Below, one piece after another: positions 1,740 to 30,097 of a stretch of DNA of 34,272 nucleotides (position 1 is the first letter of the stretch; every line of letters starts with the position of its first letter). The notes beneath the pieces are model-generated. The model saw only the letters and a list, made by a program, of their open reading frames with translations. It was not told the DNA's origin and searched no databases. Position numbers and translations under genes: made by a program. The DNA is taken from the NCBI GenBank assembly GCA_005885085.1, contig VAXY01000013.1, forward strand, positions 19,463-53,734, written 5' to 3'. This DNA comes from Actinomycetota bacterium (GTDB lineage: Bacteria > Actinomycetota > Thermoleophilia > Gaiellales > Gaiellaceae).

Positions 1740-1928
1740 GTGGCGAAGGCCCCGGATGCGGACCGGCAAGCGCGGGAGTACATCGACCGCGTGGTCGAGT
1801 CGCACCGCAAGAACGGCTACGGGCTGCGCCTGTCGAAGCAGCGCTACGAGGAAGCGGTCGGCCGGGTCGCCGCCTCGTTCCGCGACCTGATCGACGCCTC
1901 GCGTGGCCGACCGACGTCCGGGGTCTGA
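1740..1928 (+). CDS. Hypothetical protein (62 aa)
   Basis: Balanced composition and starts 5 nt after the previous stop. Its last codons and stop (1926-1928) lie inside the GGGGTCTGACCCC repeat. Confidence 0.4.
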   Translation: MAKAPDADRQAREYIDRVVESHRKNGYGLRLSKQRYEEAVGRVAASFRDLIDASRGRPTSGV

Positions 1929-1934
1929 CCCCGG
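1918..1934. repeat. Single unit of the GGGGTCTGACCCC palindromic repeat family (CCGGGGTCTGACCCCGG)
   Basis: 8-nt arms around a central T. Sits between the convergent ends of ORF 1740..1928 and acnA (stop 1944). The same 13-mer recurs at 8648, 14712, 14728 (rc), 8666 (rc) and 30085. Confidence 0.85.
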
Positions 1935-8644: not shown

Positions 8645-8681
8645 GCCGGGGTCTGACCCCAAGAAGGGGTCAGACCCCGGC
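8645..8681. repeat. Dimer of the GGGGTCTGACCCC repeat forming a 16-bp perfect hairpin (loop AAGAA)
   Basis: gCCGGGGTCTGACCCC aagaa GGGGTCAGACCCCGGc. Lies between the stop of the collagen-like gene (8690) and the start of the Rrf2 gene; probably terminator-like. Confidence 0.9.
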
Positions 8682-11139: not shown

Positions 11140-14100
11140 ATGGGCTTCTCGAAGCTCGTCGAGTCGTGGCCGGTCGTACGGCAGTTTCGAGAGGGCGACC
11201 CGCTCGGGTTGGGCCGTGCCGTACGCTCGGAGCGCTCGCGGACGCTGACACCTCGCATCGACGAGGCAGATCAGGTGGCGCATTCGATCTGCCCGTACTG
11301 CGCCGTCGGCTGCGCCCAACTCGTGTACGTCAAGGACGGCGAGGTCGTCCAGATCGAGGGCGATCCCGCCAGCCCGGTCTCGCGCGGCCGCCTCTGCCCG
11401 AAGGGCGCTGCGTCCCAGAACTACGTCCAGAGCCCCTTGCGCGAATACAAGGTCAAGTACCGCCGGCCCTACGGAAACGCGTGGGAAGAGCTGCCGCTCG
11501 ACGAGGCGATGGACATGATCGTCGACCGCGTTGTCGGCACCCGCGAGGAGAACTGGCAGACGGAGAATGAGCAGGGCGATCCGGTGAGGCGCACGCTCGC
11601 GATCGGGAACCTGGGCGGCGCGACGCTCGACAACGAAGAGAACTACCTGATCAAGAAGCTGATGACGGCGCTCGGCGTCGTCCAGGTCGAGAACCAAGCG
11701 CGCATATGACACAGCTCCACGGTCCCCAGTTTGGGGACCTCGTTCGGCCGAGGCGGTGCGACGACCTTCCAGCAAGACCTGCAGTACTCGGACTGCATCC
11801 TGATCATGGGCTCGAACATGGCCGAGAACCACCCGGTCGGATTCCAATGGGTGATGGAGGCCAGGGAGCGCGGCGCGCAGGTGATCCACGTCGATCCGCG
11901 CTTCACCCGCACGAGCGCAATGGCGACAACGTGGGTTGGCATCCGCGCCGGCTCCGACATTGCCTTCCTCGGCGGGATCGTCAACTACATCCTCGAGCAC
12001 GGCCGCTGGTTCGACGAGTACGTCAAGACGTACACGAACGCACCGGTCCTGATCGACGAGAAGTACGAGGACACCGAGGCGCTCGACGGCTTCTTCTCCG
12101 GCTGGAACCCACAGGAGGGTCGATACGGCGAGTACGACATCACCACGTGGGCGTACGAGGGGACGGAGCCGCAGACCGCTCCCGGCTCGAAGGCGAGCCA
12201 CACCCGCGGCGAGCAGTCCGGACACGGCGGACACGGCGGCGGTCTCTCACACGGTGAGCCGCCCGAGGAGGATGAGACGCTGCGGCACCCGCGCTGCGTC
12301 TTCCAGATCCTGAAACGTCACTTCGCGCGCTACACGCCCGAGTTCGTCGCCGAGACGTGCGGCTGCACGCCGGAGGAGTTCACGGCCGTCGCGGAGGCGC
12401 TGTGCGCCAACTCCGGACGCGAGCGCACGAGCTCGATCGTGTACGCCGTCGGCTGGACGCAGCACACCGTCGGTGTCCAGATCATCCGCGCGGCGGCGAT
12501 CATCCAGCTGCTGCTCGGGAACGTCGGCCGTCCGGGCGGCGGCGTGATGGCGTTACGCGGACACGCGTCGATCCAGGGCTCCACCGACCTCGCGACGCTC
12601 TTCAACATCCTTCCGGGCTATCTCTCGATGCCGCAGTCCGACGCCAAGGGCGGCCTGAAGAAGTACATCGAGAGCGCCACCGCGCCGGCGGGCTGGTGGG
12701 GCCGGGCCGACACGTACATCGTCAGCCTGCTCAAGGCGTGGTGGGGGGCGGCGGCGACGAAGGAGAACGACTTCTGCTTCGAGTACCTGCCGAAGATCGA
12801 CGAGGACCACTCCGAGTACTGGACGTTCGTGCAGATGCTCGAGGGAAACGTCAAGGGCTACATCGTCGTCGGCGAGAACCCGGTCGTCGGGTCCGCGAAC
12901 GGGAGACTGCACGCGAAGGGCCTGACGAAGCTCGACTGGCTCGTCGTGCGCGACCTCGTCGAGATCGAGACCGCCGCGTTCTGGCAGGAGGCGCCCGACG
13001 AGATCGGCACGGAAGTCTTCTTCCTGCCGGCGTCGTCGCACGTCGAGAAGGACGGGTCGTTCACGAATACGCAGCGGCTCGTGCAGTGGCACTTCAAGGC
13101 CGTCGACGCGAAAGAGGACTGCCGTTCCGAGCTGTGGTTCTACTACCACCTCGGGCTCAAGATCCGTGAGCGGCTGAAGGGCTCGCAGGATCCGAAGGAC
13201 CAGCCGATCCTCGACCTCAGCTGGCACTACCCGACTCACGGCGAGCACAACGAGCCGAGCGCCGAGGCCGTGCTCGCCGAGATGAACGGCCGGGACGACA
13301 ATGGCAAGGCGCTGCCTGGCTACAAGCAGCTGAAGGCTGACGGCTCGACGGCGTCCGGGTGCTGGCTGTACGCGGGCATCTACGCCGACGAGGTCAACCA
13401 GGCCGCGCGCAAGAAGCCGTGCTGGGAGCAGGACTACGTCGCCGCCGAGTGGGCGTGGTCGTGGCCGGCGAATCGGAGGCTGATGTACAACCGCGCCTCC
13501 GCGGCCCCGGACGGGCAACCGTGGTCGGCGCGCAAGCAGTACGTGTGGTGGGACGCCGGGGAGAAGAAATGGACGGGCAAGGACGTCCCCGACTTCGACG
13601 AGCAGAAACCGCCGGACTACGAGCCGAGCGATGACGCGGAGGGCCCGGACGCCATCCGCGGCGACCATCCGTTCATCATGCAGTCGGACGGGCAGGGCTG
13701 GCTCTACGTCCCACAGGGGCTCCTCGACGGCCCGCTGCCGACGCACTACGAGCCGCACGAGTCGCCGTTCCAGAACCCGCTCTACAGCCAGAGCGCCAAT
13801 CCGCGCCGCCAGCGGTTCGATCGGCCCGAGGATCCGCAGAACGACCCGGATGGCTACCCGTACGTCGTGACGACGTACCGGTTGACGGAGCACCACACGG
13901 CCGGCGGCATGTCGCGGTTCGTGCCGTACCTCTCCGAGCTACAGCCCGCGATGTTCTGCGAGGTGCATCCCGAGCTGGCGCGCGAGCGCGGGCTCGTCCA
14001 CGGCGGCTGGGCGACGATCCGCACCTCCCGGGCCGAGATCGAGGCACGCGTGCTCGTCACCGACCGGATCAAGCCGGTGCGGTCGAACGGCCGCGTCGTG

Positions 14101-14227
14101 CACCAGGTCGGTCTGCCGTACCACTGGGGCTCACGACCTCGCGCACATGACGCTCGACCCGAACGTACACATCCAGGAGGTCAAGGCGCTCACGTGCGAC
14201 ATCCGGCCGGGACGGCGCACGCGATGA
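11140..14227 (+). CDS. fdhA: Formate dehydrogenase alpha subunit (molybdopterin, actinobacterial FdhA type) with in-frame UGA (Sec) at 11707-11709 and an apparent +1 frame change near 14128
   Basis: CPYCAVGCAQ 4Fe-4S motif. ENQARI-[TGA]-HSSTVPSLGTSFGRGGATT matches the active-site Cys/Sec position, and ORFs 11140..11709 and 11731.. share a frame. The C-terminal AHDLAHMTLDPNVHIQEVKALTCDIRPGRRTR* is read in the +1 frame and stops at 14225-14227, overlapping the fdhB ATG. Confidence 0.9.
11721..11739 (+). other. Candidate SECIS hairpin (GGTCCCCA gtt TGGGGACC)
   Basis: An 8-bp perfect stem with a 3-nt loop, beginning 11 nt after the UGA. This is the position expected for a bacterial SECIS. Confidence 0.5.
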
Positions 14228-15123
14228 GCGACTTCGCCACTCTCGTGGACCTCACGGGCGAGCCGGACGGTTGGTCGGAGACCTATGGCGACGAGACGCA
14301 GCCGCGCATGGGCTTCTTCACGGACACGTCGATCTGCATCGGGTGCAAGGCCTGCGAGGTGGCGTGCAAGGAGTGGAACGTGATCCCTGAGGACGGCCTC
14401 GTCTGGACCGGCGAGTCCTACGATCACACGTCGACGCTCGGCGCGAACTCGTGGCGGCACGTCGCGTTCGTCGAACAGAGGAAGCCGTTGCGCGGCGAGG
14501 ACGGCGGCGGAGACGCGCTCCGCTGGCTGATGTCGTCGGACGTGTGCAAGCACTGCACGCACGCCGCGTGCCTCGACGTCTGTCCGACGGGATCGCTCTT
14601 CCGCACGGAGTACGGCACGGTCGTCGTACAGGAGGACATCTGCAACGGCTGCGGCTACTGCGTCCCGGCCTGTCCCTTCGGCGTGATCGACAAACGCCAC
14701 CTGCCGAGGCCGGGGTCTGACCCCGCTGGGGTCAGACCCCAGGAGGACGGGCGCGTCTGGAAGTGCACGCTCTGCTACGACCGGCTCAAGGGCGGACACG
14801 AGCCCGCGTGCGCCAAGGCATGTCCCACGAAGTCGATCCAGTTCGGCGAGGTCGACGAGCTCCGCGAACGTGCCGACGCGCGGCTCGCGAAGCTCCAGGC
14901 CGAGGGTTGGAACGGACCGCAGCTGTACGGACGCGATCCCGGTGACGGTGTCGGTGGTTTCGGCGCCTTCTTCCTGCTGCTGGACGAGCCCGAGGTCTAC
15001 GGGCTGCCGCCGGATCCCGTCGTGGCGACGAAAAACTTGCCGGAGATGTGGAGCACGGCGGCAATCGCGGCTGGCGCACTCGTCGTCGGCGTGCTCGGTG
15101 CCTTCGTCGGAGGGTCCCGGTGA
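14224..15123 (+). CDS. fdhB: Formate dehydrogenase beta subunit (4x[4Fe-4S] ferredoxin-type, C-terminal TM anchor)
   Basis: CIGCKACEVACKEWN, CKHCTHAACLDVCP, CNGCGYCVPACPFG and CTLCYDRL...CAKACP cluster motifs. C-terminal helix AAIAAGALVVGVLGAFVGG. ATGA overlap with fdhA. Confidence 0.9.
   Translation: MSDFATLVDLTGEPDGWSETYGDETQPRMGFFTDTSICIGCKACEVACKEWNVIPEDGLVWTGESYDHTSTLGANSWRHVAFVEQRKPLRGEDGGGDALRWLMSSDVCKHCTHAACLDVCPTGSLFRTEYGTVVVQEDICNGCGYCVPACPFGVIDKRHLPRPGSDPAGVRPQEDGRVWKCTLCYDRLKGGHEPACAKACPTKSIQFGEVDELRERADARLAKLQAEGWNGPQLYGRDPGDGVGGFGAFFLLLDEPEVYGLPPDPVVATKNLPEMWSTAAIAAGALVVGVLGAFVGGSR
14712..14740. repeat. Dimer of the GGGGTCTGACCCC repeat (13-bp arms, loop GCT) located inside the fdhB reading frame
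   Basis: GGGGTCTGACCCC gct GGGGTCAGACCCC, translated in frame as G-S-D-P-A-G-V-R-P. Confidence 0.9.
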
Positions 15124-25499: not shown

Positions 25500-26005
25500 T
25501 CGCCTACAAGTTCCTCGACGACGGTGCCGCCGGGCCGTTCACGGGCTTTCGCTGGCCGGTCGGCGAGTGGGTCGACGCCGGAGGCGTGGACCCGTGCCTC
25601 GAGGGGATCCATGCCTGCCGTCTCCGTGATCTCCCCGTCTGGATCGGCCGCGAGCTGTGGGAAATCGAGCTCGACGGCGCACTGGTCGAACAGGCGCGGA
25701 AGGTCGTCGCCCCGCGCGGCCGGCTGACGCGGCGGATCGACGCGTGGAACGGACAGGTCGCGCGTGAGTTCGGTCGCTTCTGTGCGCGCCGGACACGCGA
25801 GCGGGTCGGGTATGTGCCCGTCCTGGCCGGTTTCGTCGCGGACGTCGAGCGCTTCGTGGCCGCAGATCGCATCCCTATCGCCGGGTTTGCCGCGGCGCGC
25901 GCGGCGGAGCTTCGGGACGGGCCGGCCGCGTACGAGGAGGAACGCCTCGCCCAGGCGAACTGGCTAGCCGAGCGGCTCGGGCTCAAGGCCGGCGACCCCG
26001 GCTGA
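25496..26005 (+). CDS. Conserved hypothetical protein (169 aa) translationally coupled to the anti-sigma factor
   Basis: GTG 25496 forms a GTGA overlap. Sequence is YKFLDDGAAGPFTGFRWPVGEWV...CLEGIHACRLRDLPVW...ELWEIEL. Family not recognised. Confidence 0.6.
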   Translation: MIAYKFLDDGAAGPFTGFRWPVGEWVDAGGVDPCLEGIHACRLRDLPVWIGRELWEIELDGALVEQARKVVAPRGRLTRRIDAWNGQVAREFGRFCARRTRERVGYVPVLAGFVADVERFVAADRIPIAGFAAARAAELRDGPAAYEEERLAQANWLAERLGLKAGDPG

Positions 26006-27178
26006 GCCTTCGTGCAGAAGCGTCAGTGCGGCCAGCGGGAAGAGGAGCACGGACAGCAGGCCAGCCGCCACGAGAGCCGCGCCCGTGGCCTGGCTGATCA
26101 GTCCGAGCTCCATCCCGATCTGTCCGGCGACGACGAGAAAGCTCAGTGACGTCGCCTGAAGCAGCGCCGCGGCAGCCGTTCTCCGTTCGCCGAGCGTGCG
26201 GCGGTAGAGGAGAGCGGGCACGCCCCTCGCGGCCAGCAGCGCGACGACGAAGATCGGCACTCGCGCAATCGTCGACCCGCTCGCGAACAGCGCGTCGAGG
26301 TTGAAGCGCACGCCGCTCGTGACGAAGAAGAACGGGACGAAGACGCCGAAGCCAGCCGCTTCGAGCTTCCGGCGAAACTGGGGGTGCGTCATCGCGCGAT
26401 CGGTGTCGACCAGCTTGAGCACCGCTCCCGCGACGAAGGCGCCGAGGATGGCCTCGAGCCCGAGCTTCTCGGCGAGGACGACGAACGCCGTCAGCAGCAC
26501 GAACGCTCCACGCACCCGGATCTGCGCGGTGGTGTCCTGGAGCCGCACCAGCGCCTTCGAGATGCGCATCGACCGTTGCGCCTGCAGGACAGCGATCCCG
26601 ATTGCGCCGACGAGCGCAGCGAAGCCGCCGAGGAGAACGAGTTTGGCGCCGACGCCACTCGACTCCTGCGAGAAGAACAGCGACAACAGCACGATCGTCG
26701 CGACGTCGGCGATCGACGCGGCCGCGATCACGAGCTGCCCGAACTGCGTCGACGCCTCGCCGCTGTCTTTCAGCACGGGGATCACGACGCCGAGCGATGT
26801 CGCCGACAGCATGATCGCGAGCAGCAGAGGCGCGCCGGTGAGCCCTGCGGCGTCGAGAATCAGGCCCACGGCGAGCGCGATCCCGAACGACAGCGCGAAA
26901 CCGGCCGCCGTGAGTCGGAGCAGCTGGCCGCGCAGCATGTCGAACTCCACCTCGAGGCCCGCCAACAGGAGCAGGAACGCGAGCCCGAGCAGCGAGAGCA
27001 CCTCGACCGGCGGATCGACGTGCACCCAGCCGAGCACCGAGGGGCCGACGACGATGCCGAGCACGATCTCGAGCACGACCGACGGGAGCCGCAACGCCGG
27101 GGCGAGTCCCAACGCGAGCGGCGCCGCGAAGGCGACGGCCGCGACGATCGCCAGGCTCGTGAACGAGAGATGCACCAC
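25964..27178 (-). CDS. Cation:proton antiporter (CPA2/Kef-type Na+/H+ exchanger family)
   Basis: 404 aa with about 12 TM helices and the Na_H_Exchanger pattern (VVLEIVLGIVVGPSVLGW...). No KTN/RCK domain. Confidence 0.85.
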   Translation of the reverse strand: MVHLSFTSLAIVAAVAFAAPLALGLAPALRLPSVVLEIVLGIVVGPSVLGWVHVDPPVEVLSLLGLAFLLLLAGLEVEFDMLRGQLLRLTAAGFALSFGIALAVGLILDAAGLTGAPLLLAIMLSATSLGVVIPVLKDSGEASTQFGQLVIAAASIADVATIVLLSLFFSQESSGVGAKLVLLGGFAALVGAIGIAVLQAQRSMRISKALVRLQDTTAQIRVRGAFVLLTAFVVLAEKLGLEAILGAFVAGAVLKLVDTDRAMTHPQFRRKLEAAGFGVFVPFFFVTSGVRFNLDALFASGSTIARVPIFVVALLAARGVPALLYRRTLGERRTAAAALLQATSLSFLVVAGQIGMELGLISQATGAALVAAGLLSVLLFPLAALTLLHEGSAGVAGLEPEPLG

Positions 27179-27211: not shown

Positions 27212-27240
27212 AGACTTAGTGGCTCAGAGCCACTAAGTCT
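27212..27240. repeat. Perfect palindrome aGACTTAGTGGCTC-A-GAGCCACTAAGTCt (14-bp arms), copy 1
   Basis: Seen directly. Lies in the divergent intergenic region between the CPA2 gene (start 27178) and the ligase cassette. About 48% GC in a roughly 70% GC context. Confidence 0.9.
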
Positions 27241-27258
27241 GGCTCAAGGGCGGGCTTG

Positions 27259-27309
27259 CGGCGCCCGACCAGAGAGGCCGCGACGGCTTTGCCGGCGGGC
27301 GCCGTTTTT
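27259..27309 (+). terminator. Intrinsic-terminator-like hairpin (9-bp GC stem CGGCGCCCG/CGGGCGCCG) followed by TTTTT, with no upstream plus-strand gene
   Basis: The stem pairs 27259-27267 with 27296-27304, and T5 runs 27305-27309. An outer pairing CTCAAGG/CCTTGAG (27243-27249 / 27310-27316) encloses it. Confidence 0.35.
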
Positions 27310-27322
27310 CCTTGAGTTCGTC

Positions 27323-27351
27323 GCAGATGAGCTCAAGGGCCCGGGCGGGCG
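27323..27351 (-). repeat. Partial, inverted copy of the 21469-21506 repeat segment (GCAGATG..AGCTCAAGGGCCCGGGCGGGCG)
   Basis: Aligned by eye to the reverse complement of 21469-21506: about 27 of 31 positions match, with a 3-nt gap and a 1-nt insertion. Confidence 0.5.
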
Positions 27352-27427
27352 CGGCTAGACGCGCCCACGTCCGACCCGACTGCGGCTGCGGACCGGACTA
27401 CCCGGACCCCGGTCCTAGAGTGCCCGA

Positions 27428-27754
27428 TTGCGGAGGTTTCTGACGGGTAGCCTGATTCCCGTGGAGCAGGGCGGAATCGAGCTGATCCAAGCCGAACAGC
27501 TCTGGCAAGACGACGACGCGGCAGACCACGGTGGCAACGGCTGCACTTTCGTCGCGGATTTCATGACCGCCGCCCACCTGATCCTGGTGTGGGAGCAGCG
27601 GGACGATCCGAATCTTCTTCACCATGCGCAGCGCGCCAAGGAGGTTGGGCGCAACCCACGGATCGAGGCGTACGCGAGCCAGTACGGCCCGAGCGCCTCG
27701 TACTACGCGTGGGAGGCGGCGGGGGGCCCGGTTCACGGCGTTCGCGCTCGGTGA
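27428..27754 (+). CDS. Hypothetical protein (up to 108 aa; start TTG 27428 or GTG 27461)
   Basis: High GC3 (about 80% by eye) and non-shadow composition. Its stop TGA overlaps the GTG start of the downstream ligase (GTGA). Family not recognised. Confidence 0.55.
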   Translation: MRRFLTGSLIPVEQGGIELIQAEQLWQDDDAADHGGNGCTFVADFMTAAHLILVWEQRDDPNLLHHAQRAKEVGRNPRIEAYASQYGPSASYYAWEAAGGPVHGVRAR

Positions 27755-28794
27755 TCGAGCAGAACTTCGGACGCTCCTTGACGCTTGGGGTCGAGGAGGA
27801 GCTGATGATCCTCGACGCGGAGACGCATGCCCAGAAGGCGGCGAGTCACGAGCTGATCCCGGCGGTGGAAGTGCCGCGTGGTGCCGTGAAGACGGAGCTG
27901 TTCCAATCCGTGATCGAGCTCAACACGGACGTCTGCGACTCACCGGCCGACGCCGCGGAGGTCCTGAGTAGCCTGCGGCGTAGCACGACGGACGCTGCGC
28001 AACGGTTGGGCTACGTGATCGCGGCGGGTGGGTCGCATCCGTTCGACACCGTGTCCGAGCAGCCGATCGCGGACAACCCCCACTACAGGAAGTTCGTCGA
28101 CTACGCGGGCCGGGCAGCGAGGCGCCAAGGCGTGAGCGGGCTGCACGTGCATGTCGGCATGCCTGATGCGGATTCATGTCTCCGGGTGCTGGAGCTCGTT
28201 CTGCCCTGGCTCCCGCTCGTGCTGGCGCTCTCCGCGAATTCGCCGTGGTTCGAACGCGAACGCACCGGGCTGAAGTCGACACGCGCCGAGATCCTCGGGT
28301 TGCTGCCGCGACACGGCGCGCCTCCGCATTTCGGTTCGTGGCACGAATGGGAAGAGCTGGTCGACACCTTCGTCCGTTCAGGCGTGGCGAGCGGGTACAC
28401 GGCTCTGCACTGGGACATTCGCCCGCATCCGACGCTGGGGACACTCGAGATCCGGGTTCCGGATCAGCCCACGTCGCTGATCACGACCACCCGCTTTGTC
28501 GACCTGTTGCACGCGCTCTGTCGGTGGGCGCTCGACGAGACCGCGCGCAAGCCGCTTTCGAGGGCGATCTACGAGCAGAATCGCTGGGCAGCGTCGACCT
28601 ACGGCCCGGGAGCGGAGCTGATCGATCCGGACGATGCCCGGGCCGCGAGCGTTCCGGATCTCTACCGGGAGCTCGTCGGCATGATCGGCCACGATCCGAA
28701 CCTCGACCCGACCGTCTGCGAGGCCGACCGGCAACTCGAGTTCGAGCGGCCGGAGGAGGCGACGGCGGACCTGGTCGAGCGCTCGATAGCCTGA
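27751..28794 (+). CDS. ybdK: Carboxylate-amine ligase, glutamate-cysteine ligase family 2 (YbdK-like)
   Basis: GTG 27751. LTLGVEEELMILD, KTELFQSVIELNT, GLHVHVGMPD and SANSPWF...TGLKSTR are GCS2/YbdK family motifs. 347 aa. Confidence 0.85.
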   Translation: MIEQNFGRSLTLGVEEELMILDAETHAQKAASHELIPAVEVPRGAVKTELFQSVIELNTDVCDSPADAAEVLSSLRRSTTDAAQRLGYVIAAGGSHPFDTVSEQPIADNPHYRKFVDYAGRAARRQGVSGLHVHVGMPDADSCLRVLELVLPWLPLVLALSANSPWFERERTGLKSTRAEILGLLPRHGAPPHFGSWHEWEELVDTFVRSGVASGYTALHWDIRPHPTLGTLEIRVPDQPTSLITTTRFVDLLHALCRWALDETARKPLSRAIYEQNRWAASTYGPGAELIDPDDARAASVPDLYRELVGMIGHDPNLDPTVCEADRQLEFERPEEATADLVERSIA

Positions 28795-28799
28795 CCGTC

Positions 28800-29021
28800 G
28801 TGCGTCGCGAGGAGACGATTCAGGTCAGCGGCATCCGCTGCGAGCGCTGCGTCCTGCGGCTCGGCAAGGTCCTCGAAGGGCACGACGGCCTGGAGACCGC
28901 GAACGCAAACCTGATCGGCGAGGTGTCACTCGCCTGGGACGACGAGCGAACGTCCCGCGAGGCGCTGCTGGAGGCGATGGCGCGCGGTGGCTTTCGGGAG
29001 TTAGTGGCTCAGAGCCACTAA
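28800..29021 (+). CDS. Heavy-metal-associated (HMA/CopZ-like) fold protein with a CxxC motif (CERC), 73 aa
   Basis: IQVSGIRCERCVLRLGKVLEGHDGLETANANLIGEVSLAWDD...LLEAMARGGF follows the beta-alpha-beta-beta-alpha-beta HMA pattern. GTG 28800 lies 5 nt after the ybdK stop. The last 7 codons and the stop lie in palindrome copy 2. Confidence 0.6.
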   Translation: MRREETIQVSGIRCERCVLRLGKVLEGHDGLETANANLIGEVSLAWDDERTSREALLEAMARGGFRELVAQSH

Positions 29022-29024
29022 GTC
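28998..29024. repeat. Palindrome GAGTTAGTGGCTC-A-GAGCCACTAAGTC, copy 2 (26/27 identical to copy 1)
   Basis: Seen directly. It contains the TAA stop of the HMA gene (29019-29021) and the TAG stop of the convergent small ORF (29020-29018). Confidence 0.9.
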
Positions 29025-29176
29025 CGTTCCGGCTCGCTTGCCTCTTTGATGCGGTTGCCGACGAGACCCGGCAGGGGCTCGTGGCCCTCGGGATCGCGGT
29101 TCTCCTCGTCCTCGCCCTGCTCGGCGGAGAGCTCCTCGCGAATCTCGGCGCGCCGCTGTTCGGTGTCCTTTTCCAT
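29018..29176 (-). CDS. Small acidic protein, 52 aa (below the ORF-track cutoff)
   Basis: ATG 29176 is preceded by GGAAAGGGG. Translation is MEKDTEQRRAEIREELSAEQGEDEENRDPEGHEPLPGLVGNRIKEASEPERT. About 84% G/C at third codon positions (counted by hand). Confidence 0.55.
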   Translation of the reverse strand: MEKDTEQRRAEIREELSAEQGEDEENRDPEGHEPLPGLVGNRIKEASEPERT

Positions 29177-29191
29177 CCCCTTTCCGTACCC

Positions 29192-29217
29192 GGAATGAGT
29201 GTGGATAACCGGACGTT
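29192..29217 (+). promoter_or_regulatory. SigR/SigH-type promoter GGAAT-N18-GTT upstream of the sigma gene
   Basis: GGAAT at 29192-29196, an exact 18-nt spacer, then GTT at 29215-29217. Lies 33 nt upstream of ATG 29250. Matches the published SigR/SigH consensus for autoregulation. Confidence 0.65.
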
Positions 29218-29249
29218 TATGCCAAGAACACCTTGCTAGGGTGGCCCGG

Positions 29250-30084: not shown

Positions 30085-30097
30085 GGGGTCTGACCCC
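30085..30097. repeat. Single unit of the GGGGTCTGACCCC repeat
   Basis: Lies between the convergent ends of rshA (30079) and the HTH-LytR_C gene (30109). Confidence 0.8.

Follow-up and report, generated by a model that had tools for sequence, protein, structure and literature searches.

A dispersed, Gaiellales-specific 27-bp palindromic repeat that probably marks gene 3' ends

How transcript 3' ends form in high-GC actinobacteria is poorly understood, and canonical terminators are rare there. Canonical intrinsic terminators carry a 3' U tract (with a 5' A tract if they are bidirectional), and their sequence is not common to different sites. REPs are imperfect palindromes with a GTAG head, usually present in hundreds of copies and arranged as inverted pairs (REPINs) that are associated with a RAYT transposase. 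To our knowledge, TRIT is the sole conserved motif at transcript 3' ends in high-GC actinobacteria, and its function is unproven. In Mycobacterium, TRIT has been described as a palindromic motif with 147 copies, most of them bidirectional, whose centers fall ~8 nt within the coding sequence, and its authors also suspected a factor recognizing the conserved stem (PMC3152330). Mapped 3' ends in M. tuberculosis show minimal overlap with predicted TRITs and with U-less hairpins (bioRxiv 10.1101/2022.06.01.494293). Two further hairpins at gene ends have been characterized: REP325 is both a terminator and a stabilizer (bioRxiv 10.64898/2026.03.23.713779), and a stem-loop between convergent genes positions polymerase collisions (bioRxiv 10.1101/2022.10.23.513370).

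The window analyzed here, a whole stretch of 34,272 nt from a Gaiellaceae contig, contains two copies of a 27-bp palindrome, which lie among the following features:

25964..27178, minus strand: CPA2 / Na-H exchanger gene, an ORF whose orthologues match PF00999
27213..27239, no strand: palindromic repeat of 27 bp, copy 1, with the CPA2 gene (minus) and the leader of the three-gene unit (plus) diverging from it
27428..27754, plus strand: unknown ORF, listed at 108 aa, which opens the conserved unit and whose TGA overlaps the GTG start of the YbdK-type gene
27751..28794, plus strand: YbdK-type carboxylate-amine ligase (GCS2) gene, 347 aa, PF04107, 100% cluster P0001
28800..29021, plus strand: HMA-like gene, 73 aa, whose orthologues match PF00403 weakly
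28998..29024, no strand: copy 2 of the 27-bp palindromic repeat, holding the stop codons of the HMA-like gene (plus) and the 52-aa gene (minus)
29018..29176, minus strand: 52-aa acidic protein gene, convergent with the HMA-like gene, its last codon and TAG lying within copy 2

Copy 1 (GACTTAGTGGCTCAGAGCCACTAAGTC, 27213-27239) belongs to a perfect palindrome that spans 27212-27240, with 14-nt arms around a central A, and copy 2 (GAGTTAGTGGCTCAGAGCCACTAAGTC, 28998-29024) is perfect over 29001-29021. The two copies are identical at 26 of 27 positions and their centers lie 1785 bp apart. Recomputation thereby bore out the positions, identity, and spacing on which the original prediction was built, and as an observation the palindromes are confirmed. 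Its value of about 48% GC for the palindromes held for the 21-mer (48%) but not for the 27-mer (52%); the GC content of the window is 68.7%. When the 21-nt core was searched with up to three mismatches, it matched the window only at copy 1 and copy 2, and it gave 0 matches in 100 dinucleotide shuffles, so that chance is no explanation for the palindromes. As RNA, copy 1 folds into a stable hairpin (-20.9/-22.1 kcal/mol) and copy 2 into one of -19.5/-16.4 kcal/mol, with z-scores for both of -3.2 to -5.8. No Rfam family was found over either copy at gathering or permissive thresholds, and a terminator scan of the window called neither of them.

As predicted, the intergenic region that holds copy 1 is divergent. 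The copy precedes the GTG start of the minus-strand CPA2 gene (27178) by 34 nt, and no gene 3' end adjoins it. A minus-strand 30-aa ORF (27244-27336) that ends 4 nt from this copy was judged to be non-coding because its GC3, counted by hand, is ~67%, not above the overall GC of the window. Copy 2 does contain both of the convergent stop codons attributed to it: the TAA at 29019-29021 terminates the 73-aa HMA-like ORF on the plus strand, and the minus-strand TAG at 29020-29018 terminates the 52-aa ORF. Copy 2 also encodes the final seven codons (ELVAQSH) and the stop of the HMA-like gene; in relatives without the palindrome, the C termini read GGFRESAALSP, GGFRELSAF, or GGFRELASA, directly followed by the stop.

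Outside the window, the exact 19-mer was found in at least 117 blocks of 8 kb among the matches listed, and the hosts of these listed blocks are almost all Gaiellaceae, Gaiellales, or Thermoleophilia genome bins. Single genome bins harbor at least 9 to 13 exact copies, and the copy number appears to be in the tens of sites per genome rather than in the hundreds. The 870 kb fetched contain 160 occurrences of the 13-mer core and 11 of the next commonest palindrome, while the viral contigs scanned for the 19-mer gave 0 matches. The consensus is a 27-bp palindrome, GA[C/G]TTAGTGGCTC-W-GAGCCACTAA[G/C]TC, in which the loop base is A 46 times and T 30 times. Its conservation boundary is sharp, with pairing falling from 68% at +/-13 to 27% at +/-14. 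The 15-bp core GTGGCTCWGAGCCAC is invariant, and copies with one mismatch are almost nonexistent. In orthologous copies, the core is 100% identical despite flanks that have diverged to ~80%, which implies constraint. Pairing of the outer stem is maintained by compensatory changes: at +/-11, the pairs CG (45) and GC (29) contrast with GG (11) and CC (10) (p=2e-7), and compensatory pairs were also found at +/-8 (p=6e-6) and +/-10 (p=3e-4). We saw no strand asymmetry (G.U-compatible mismatches, 23 sense versus 18 antisense), and hence nothing favors RNA over DNA as the active form; nor was a U tract seen (T makes up 17% of the 12 sense-strand nt downstream, versus ~15% background). An uptake-sequence-like logic was also considered and rejected, isolated half sites being no commoner than chance 8-mers. 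Full-text literature searches with the core sequences found no relevant paper, and those on Gaiella plus palindrome found nothing relevant. The element is a new, Gaiellales-specific repeat family of an already known kind.

We then compared the intergenic regions that host the repeat with the baseline of the same loci, gene ends in these positional counts being GC3-based gene calls. Of the host regions, 51% lie between convergent genes, 40% between tandem genes, and 8% between divergent ones, versus 18%, 60%, and 22% at baseline. The stop codon lies within the element at 51 of 161 facing 3' ends and within 10 nt of it at a further 32, i.e., 83/161 facing gene ends are inside the hairpin or no more than 10 nt from it. 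The stop codons peak at the TAG of TTAG, at the TAA of CTAA, and at a TGA that uses the outer GA. Almost half of the single sites (36/79) are common to two converging gene ends, and 13 of the 38 doublets have a separate gene end next to each copy. The neighboring genes are functionally unrelated (rplS, rpoD, dnaX, transporters, dehydrogenases), and clustering of the neighbor proteins for a recurrent partner returned only orthologous groups of housekeeping genes.

The copies of a doublet lie 53 to 102 bp apart, with preferred centre-to-centre distances of 68-70 bp and 77-80 bp, and two orthologous pairs switch between these two spacings. The spacers are unrelated between loci and fold like shuffles (mean z, -0.16), and no conserved hairpin was hidden in the doublet spacers checked. 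A CRISPR-like reading of the 69-bp doublets was rejected because the units number only two or three, their period ranges from 53 to 102 bp, and stop codons directly adjoin the copies.

Two orthologous junctions carry a GGGG hairpin in the window and a TTAG palindrome in other genomes. The hairpins of the window at these junctions are as follows:

1918..1934, no strand: CCGGGGTCTGACCCCGG hairpin between convergent genes, its loop holding the TGA of the plus-strand gene (1740..1928)
30085..30097, no strand: GGGGTCTGACCCC hairpin where the anti-sigma gene converges with the LytR_C gene

The junction orthologous to the CCGGGGTCTGACCCCGG site harbors a TTAG-family doublet in two contigs (L023 and L036). 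At the anti-sigma/LytR_C junction, L030 carries a TTAG-family doublet, L123 and L125 a GTCCCAGGGACWGTCCCTGGGAC doublet, and L118 a unique hairpin. Sister lineages thus carry different perfect palindromes at the same orthologous junctions, and the GGGGTCTGACCCC hairpin is the probable functional counterpart of the TTAG palindrome found at that junction elsewhere. It is doubtful that the two palindromes are unrelated to the GGGGTCTGACCCC family, as had been claimed: both are odd palindromes centred on TCWGA, and both families read GG[C/G]TCWGA[G/C]CC with one pair swapped.

We consider it reasonably probable that the palindromes of the window are copies of a dispersed, Gaiellales-specific 27-bp repeat marking gene 3' ends, and the repeat probably acts in 3'-end formation or mRNA protection. 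Its dispersal at many unrelated gene 3' ends fits the third alternative of the original prediction, a second terminator-type repeat family; the interpretation as a whole is partly supported. A short hairpin repeat at the ends of many unrelated genes is no mark of a mobile cassette or of a regulator site. The element would work as a stable hairpin at transcript 3' ends (predicted at ~-20 kcal/mol for the RNA). Where genes converge, as at copy 2, the hairpin could set the stopping point of two converging polymerases and may shield both mRNAs from 3' exonucleases, as reported for REP and bidirectional terminator hairpins. Copy 1, between divergent genes, would be atypical and of recent acquisition, with a hairpin predicted to lie in or next to the 5' region of the CPA2 gene. 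Swaps of palindrome family at single orthologous junctions, along with the likeness to TRIT in a separate lineage, offer a comparative handle on the role and spread of such elements.

If the element acted only as a hairpin, its 15-bp core would not be expected to stay absolutely invariant across species. This counts against the repeat being a gene-end hairpin, as do the lack of a U tract and of strand asymmetry, the location of copy 1 away from any gene 3' end, and the minimal overlap of TRITs and U-less hairpins with mapped 3' ends in M. tuberculosis. It is conceivable, at a low probability, that the palindromes are instead DNA sites for a sequence-specific dimeric protein with a nucleoid-organizing, topological, or recombination role, their location at 3' ends reflecting mere tolerance. 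The invariance of the core without one-mismatch variants would be expected of such sites, and so would the perfect symmetry with neither strand asymmetry nor U tract, the number of merely tens of sites per genome, and the two favored spacings of paired copies, which recur although the spacers are unrelated and between which two orthologous pairs switch. However, compensation at three stem positions suits selection for pairing better than independent recognition of half sites, and the unrelated perfect palindromes at the same junctions in sister lineages suggest that a hairpin, and not the site of one particular protein, is what these junctions require. The narrow peaks of overlap with stop codons and the failure to find a recurrent neighboring protein family also argue against a protein site.

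A 23-bp variant of the palindrome, GGTAGTGGCTCWGAGCCACTACC, has an identical 19-bp core and occurs in Acidobacteriota, Verrucomicrobiota, and other soil contigs. Perfect direct repeats flank 10 of 20 copies of this variant (8 bp in nine cases and 9 bp in one), and near-perfect ones flank several more. It shows no 3'-end preference and has GGnnnTG ends; GTAG occurs only here and not in the Gaiellales 27-mer. In ISfinder, GGnnnTG ends combined with a duplication of 8-9 bp characterize IS1 and most IS6/IS26 elements (PMC10425158; PMC6807381). The combination of TIRs and target-site duplication that characterizes DDE-type MITEs was found only in the 23-bp variant of other phyla and not in Gaiellales, where 101 independent copies gave no direct-repeat signal at half-lengths of 7 to 17 and duplications of 2 to 9 bp. 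With hand-written query sequences, tBLASTn found no match to E. coli RayT or IS200 TnpA in ~0.9 Mb around the copies, nor to the IS26 and IS1 transposases in the fetched loci (~0.9 Mb). Filled sites are 19 to 43 nt longer than empty ones in the pairs compared, which are 75 to 85% identical, and in L097 versus L029 the old stop codon survives downstream of the filled site. The core held in common with a duplication-flanked 23-bp element of other phyla is a concrete lead on origin.

These data bear on a further, doubtful possibility, namely that Gaiellales possess a sequence-specific gene-end punctuation. The invariant 27-bp palindrome would be read by a dedicated factor, as a DNA cruciform or an RNA hairpin; its core would have been borrowed from the ends of an IS1/IS6-like transposon, which in other phyla would still leave 23-bp footprints flanked by duplications. 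The palindrome would be set on stop codons and paired at 69 or 78 bp, and at the same junctions in sister lineages other families would have replaced it. If true, transposon ends would have been domesticated as gene-end signals, with a turnover like that of REP-RAYT co-evolution and a different copying machinery.

Less probable still, the palindrome could be a miniature, selfish mobile element in which two transposon ends abut, devoid of host function and kept at gene ends by purging elsewhere. This would account for the duplication-flanked variant with the same core in other phyla and for its IS1 or IS6/IS26 signature, as well as for the longer filled sites and the old stop retained downstream. 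It is also consistent with copy 1 being unique to the lineage of the window and copy 2 common to few relatives, so that gain or loss is recent. On the other hand, the Gaiellales copies lack a target-site duplication at all boundaries and lengths tried, isolated half sites do not exceed chance, and the tBLASTn searches with hand-written queries revealed no IS1-, IS6-, IS200-, or RAYT-like ORF in ~0.9 Mb. Moreover, the core is fully kept where the flanks are not, implying constraint, and the variant that does bear duplications has no preference for 3' ends.

That the palindromes are operators of a local dimeric HTH regulator, the second alternative of the original prediction, is very improbable: the dyad symmetry of the arms and the placement of copy 1 among divergent promoters, 34 nt ahead of the CPA2 start, would suit an operator, but 92% of host regions hold a gene 3' end, a bias that argues against operators, divergent regions are depleted 2.6-fold (8% versus 22%), copy 2 sits at two gene ends, the neighboring genes form no coherent set with a common function, and relatives regulate the same genes without the site.

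The first alternative, in which the two copies are recombination boundaries of a mobilized three-gene cassette, was addressed by comparison with relatives. The same three genes occupy the same place in 11 related contigs, of which 0 carry copy 1 and 3 carry copy 2. Copy 1 is absent from all related contigs with DNA at this position, whether the CPA2 gene is present (L123, L124, L144) or absent (L118-L122, L142, L143). Copy 2 is found as the same palindrome at the same junction in L119, L142, and L143 and is absent from this junction in L118, L120-L125, L144, and L030. In relatives, the unknown ORF is 110 to 121 aa long, and Pfam gave no match for its orthologues; the relatives of the ligase are named YbdK family and belong to Gaiellaceae. 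The 52-aa acidic protein falls into 92 protein clusters of 51 to 59 aa, all on Gaiellaceae-type contigs, and its gene has the same position beside the sigma-factor gene in L142-L144. These comparisons show the three-gene unit to be an ordinary block of synteny, inherited vertically and present in genomes that lack the palindromes.

The original prediction had named two outcomes as refuting the cassette reading, and both were obtained: many unrelated sites hold the palindrome without any cassette pattern, and related genomes have these three genes in an identical setting with the palindromes missing. With 11 relatives that lack copy 1, and mostly copy 2, the reading is refuted, and we give it next to no probability even though the two copies bracket the unit exactly, each borders a segment that varies among relatives (the CPA2 gene and the 52-aa gene), and a few other loci have two copies 1.5 to 3.8 kb apart. 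The variable segments lie outside the bracket and not within it, direct repeats are absent, and synteny breaks are not enriched at palindrome sites (30% versus 21 to 37% at control intergenic sites). Genes and sites are also not present or absent as one unit, as those of an integron-like cassette would be, since the 11 relatives have at most one of the two palindromes. To see a mobile cassette in the YbdK/HMA unit is a tempting but wrong reading, which is now removed; nor do the palindromes say anything about how the unit is regulated.

Compared with known systems, the repeat resembles IS1- or IS6/IS26-derived miniature elements in the 19-bp core that it has in common with the 23-bp GGnnnTG palindrome, but it differs from them in its outer bases (GAST, not GG), in its lack of duplication, in its strong 3'-end bias, and in that no parent IS was found. 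Like bidirectional intrinsic terminators, it forms a stable stem-loop (-16 to -22 kcal/mol) just downstream of genes and, as in copy 2, between converging stop codons; unlike them, it has no U-rich tract 3' of the stem (T, 17%) and reuses the same 27-mer.

With the REP/BIME/REPIN elements of Enterobacteria and Pseudomonas it shares the form of short palindromes dispersed in many copies, extragenic or over the last codons, near 3' ends and between convergent genes. REPs likewise form species-specific families, persist at orthologous positions, and are reported as mRNA stabilizers and partial terminators. In contrast to REPs, the Gaiellales palindrome is perfect and has a TTAG rather than a 5' GTAG head, its doublets have unrelated spacers instead of a conserved one that forms a single long hairpin, and tBLASTn with hand-written queries gave no RAYT match in the ~0.9 Mb around the copies.

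The likeness to TRIT extends to a conserved palindromic sequence-and-structure motif that is dispersed in a high-GC actinobacterium and restricted to one lineage. It also extends to a bidirectional palindrome in a narrow position over the stop codon, overlapping the end of the coding sequence (TRIT at about -8; in Gaiellales, the main peak has the stop 7 nt inside the element). The Gaiellales element belongs to another order and probably has another sequence, and it is shorter (27 nt) and perfect, with an invariant core and probably fewer copies; we liken it to TRIT by the published description and do not claim homology. Gaiellales are a second, independent lineage with a conserved palindrome on stop codons, of the same kind as TRIT.

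Both palindromes flanking the unit formed by the unknown ORF, the YbdK/GCS2 ligase gene and the HMA-like gene are present in the sequence as originally predicted. When the window was searched with their 21-nt core, allowing up to 3 mismatches, these two copies were the sole matches, and none of 100 shuffled sequences gave one. The relevant features are as follows.

27213-27239: copy 1, GACTTAGTGGCTCAGAGCCACTAAGTC, a perfect palindrome over 27212-27240 with arms of 14 nt and a central A
28998-29024: copy 2, GAGTTAGTGGCTCAGAGCCACTAAGTC, perfect over 29001-29021
29018-29176, minus strand: gene for a highly acidic 52-aa protein, MEKDTEQRRAEIREE...DPEGHEPLPGLVGNRIKEASEP

Copy 1 is located upstream of the minus-strand CPA2 gene, 34 nt from its start. 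Copy 2 does contain the stop codons of both convergent genes, namely, the TAA of the 73-aa HMA-like ORF and, on the opposite strand, the TAG of the 52-aa ORF. Each copy gives a stable hairpin whichever strand is folded (-16 to -22 kcal/mol). No T run is present 3' of either copy, a simple terminator scan called neither, and no Rfam family was found over copy 1 or copy 2.

A genome-wide search, already proposed with the original prediction, was run on one genome per species and recovered TAGTGGCTCNGAGCCACTA in at least 117 blocks of 8 kb, identifying it as a dispersed repeat. Among the matches listed, nearly all blocks came from bins labelled Gaiellaceae, Gaiellales, Thermoleophilia or Actinomycetota, and single bins harbored at least 9 to 13 exact copies. 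The window is from this group too: its YbdK protein has relatives named Gaiellaceae at 63 to 65%, together with many closer metagenome relatives. In the 870 kb of fetched sequence, the 13-mer core was the commonest palindrome, with 160 occurrences (11 for the runner-up). After removal of orthologous duplicates, 105 copies gave the 27-bp consensus GA[C/G]TTAGTGGCTC-W-GAGCCACTAA[G/C]TC, the edge of which is sharp: conservation stops beyond ±13, and pairing, still 68% at that position, is only 27% at ±14. The 15-bp core GTGGCTCWGAGCCAC is invariant; a search tolerating two mismatches added 34 copies whose core is intact and whose outer stem differs; copies with one mismatch in the core were essentially missing. 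Compensatory changes were observed at ±11 (C:G 45 and G:C 29 versus G/G 11 and C/C 10; p = 2e-7), ±8 (A:T 85 and T:A 6 versus 6 unpaired; p = 6e-6) and ±10 (T:A 72 and C:G 8; p = 3e-4). The centre-to-centre distances of paired copies peak at 68-70 bp (about 10 independent loci) and 77-80 bp (about 8), as seen in the fetched contigs L004, L023, L026, L062, L066, L085, L086, L111 and others. The spacers of these doublets are unstructured and unrelated between loci, and two orthologous doublets switch between exactly these two spacings.

We then related the copies to genes called with a crude GC3 criterion, a caveat that applies to all position figures below. Intergenic regions holding the element (n = 84) and the other regions of the same loci (n = 526) were distributed as follows.

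Convergent regions: 51% of element-holding, 18% of others
Tandem regions: 40% of element-holding, 60% of others
Divergent regions: 8% of element-holding, 22% of others

By the same gene calls, 51 of the 161 gene 3' ends facing a copy have their stop codon within the 27-mer, with sharp peaks at the TAG of TTAG (26), the TAA of CTAA (13) and the TGA completed by the outer GA (9); 32 more end within 10 nt of the copy. Single sites are common to two converging gene ends in 36 of 79 cases, and the two copies of a doublet each adjoin a separate gene end in 13 of 38 cases. Use of the element's TAA as a stop gives the protein tail (D/E)LVAQSH or DLVALSH, carried by the window HMA protein, an MFS transporter in contig L005 and one member of the 52-aa family. 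The genes beside the copies are mutually unrelated (rplS, rpoD, dnaX, transporters, dehydrogenases). Among the readings first proposed, the evidence supports that of a second terminator-type repeat family.

Several points against a plain terminator keep a rival alive, in which a sequence-specific factor would recognise the element, possibly as DNA. There is no U tract 3' of the element (T makes up 17% of the 12 nt downstream), G.U-compatible mismatches do not favour the sense strand (23 versus 18), and the loop base has no clear orientation. In M. tuberculosis, U-less hairpins and TRITs coincide minimally with mapped transcript ends (bioRxiv 10.1101/2022.06.01.494293). Furthermore, the need for a hairpin does not by itself account for the invariant core, and the two preferred doublet spacings are kept despite unrelated, unstructured spacers. 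As for the terminator-type reading, stem-loops between convergent genes have been found to position polymerase collisions (bioRxiv 10.1101/2022.10.23.513370), and it is plausible that the stem-loop of copy 2 would act likewise.

The locus was also compared among the relatives retrieved, in each of which the three-gene unit has an ECF-type sigma/anti-sigma pair on one side and a SigH-like sigma/anti-sigma pair on the other. All hold the three genes.

Contigs L118, L120-L125 (80-82% YbdK identity), L144 and L030: copy 1 absent, copy 2 absent
Contigs L119 (90% YbdK identity), L142 and L143: copy 1 absent, copy 2 present at the same junction of the HMA and 52-aa genes

The CPA2 gene of L123, L124 and L144 has no palindrome upstream, and over all loci synteny breaks at 30% of palindrome sites versus 21 to 37% of control intergenic sites. 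The proposal that the palindromes bound a mobilised three-gene cassette is refuted, since the same unit occurs in the same place without copy 1 and mostly without copy 2, and synteny breaks are not raised at palindrome sites. The element tells nothing special about the three genes, which it happens to bracket.

An indel hot spot spans the region left of the conserved leader (25964-27178 and its counterparts), in that some relatives have and others lack the CPA2 gene, and the same holds for a DUF7666 gene and for the ECF sigma/anti-sigma pair (L118-L124, L142-L144). About 100 nt of noncoding sequence upstream of the unit's first gene (27340-27440; GGGCGCGGCTAGACGCGCCC...GACTGCGGCTGCGGACCGGACTACCCGGACCC.GGTCCTAGAGTGCC) is near-invariant in six related contigs. 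Rfam gave no match over this stretch, which varies too little for its structure to be judged; a cis-regulatory RNA and a promoter/operator region are candidate roles. Within the unit, the unknown ORF and YbdK share GTGA (27751-27754), which holds the GTG start of the latter and the overlapping stop of the former, suggesting translational coupling.

The short 52-aa gene is genuine and conserved: its product is represented by 92 protein clusters, all of Gaiellaceae type, and has no Pfam family. Copy 2 thus falls into the convergent-junction class as an ordinary member, and copy 1, specific to its lineage, belongs to the rare divergent class. In the window, L119 and L142-L144, the 52-aa gene is divergent from the SigH-like sigma-factor gene, and its product, a small protein, is a candidate partner or target of this factor. 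A GGAAT-N18-GTT motif upstream of the sigma-factor gene (29205-29230), which we take to resemble a SigH/SigR-type autoregulated promoter, is kept in all relatives.

Other hairpins occupy corresponding sites, as at the junction of the anti-sigma gene and the convergent LytR_C gene.

Window: GGGGTCTGACCCC
L120: imperfect copy of GGGGTCTGACCCC
L030: TTAG palindrome doublet
L123 and L125: doublet of GTCCCAGGGACWGTCCCTGGGAC
L118: unique hairpin

Similarly, the GGGG hairpin at 1918-1934 in the window, whose loop contains the TGA stop of the plus-strand gene, corresponds to a TTAG doublet in L023 and L036. The conserved feature at these junctions is a perfect hairpin over the stop codons, and the sequence supplying it varies by lineage. 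The GGGG and TTAG families had been described as unrelated, a term better avoided because they share the centre GG[C/G]TCWGA[G/C]CC with one pair swapped. GTCCCAGGGACWGTCCCTGGGAC is a third perfect-palindrome family (L123, 5192-5214 and 5388-5410; L125, 2685-2707), with a doublet spacing of 196 bp. GGGGTCWGACCCC occurs six times in the window (1920, 8648, 8666, 14712, 14728 and 30085), including inverted pairs 16 to 18 nt apart at 8648/8666 and 14712/14728, the latter within the long open frame 11710..15123; the copy at 1920 is the one with a TGA stop in its loop. The family is nearly missing from the other fetched Gaiellaceae loci, the window accounting for 6 of the 7 copies in 870 kb.

Regarding origin, Gaiellales copies show no target-site duplication and have no isolated half sites, and tBLASTn with approximate query sequences found no RAYT, IS200, IS1 or IS6-like gene in the 0.9 Mb around the copies. 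In two comparisons of filled versus empty sites, the filled one was longer by a net 19 and about 43 nt; the element provides a new stop codon at filled sites, and the old stop persists downstream in one case. Acidobacteriota, Verrucomicrobiota and other soil contigs (L002, L011, L126-L141) carry a 23-bp palindrome, GGTAGTGGCTCWGAGCCACTACC, whose 19-bp core is identical. Perfect direct repeats flank 10 of its 20 copies (8 bp in nine, 9 bp in one), and several more have near-perfect repeats. IS1 and most IS6/IS26 elements are characterised by GGnnnTG ends together with duplications of 8-9 bp (PMC10425158, PMC6807381). Since GGTAGTGGCTCWGAGCCACTACC shares the core and has both direct repeats and GGnnnTG ends, the Gaiellales element may descend from transposon ends. 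The 23-bp variant has no 3'-end preference, its parent element was not found, and it resembles a pair of directly joined ends of IS1 or IS6 type, flanked by a target duplication; as such it would, to our knowledge, rank among the smallest transposition products.

Overall, elements of this kind are known, but this particular family is undescribed. REP elements are similar in distribution and in their proposed role as terminator and mRNA stabiliser (bioRxiv 10.64898/2026.03.23.713779), but they differ by their GTAG head, imperfect stems, REPIN organisation and RAYT link. The closest analogue is the TRIT of Mycobacterium, which is likewise conserved, palindromic and mostly bidirectional, with 147 copies centred about 8 nt within the coding sequence and limited to one genus (PMC3152330).
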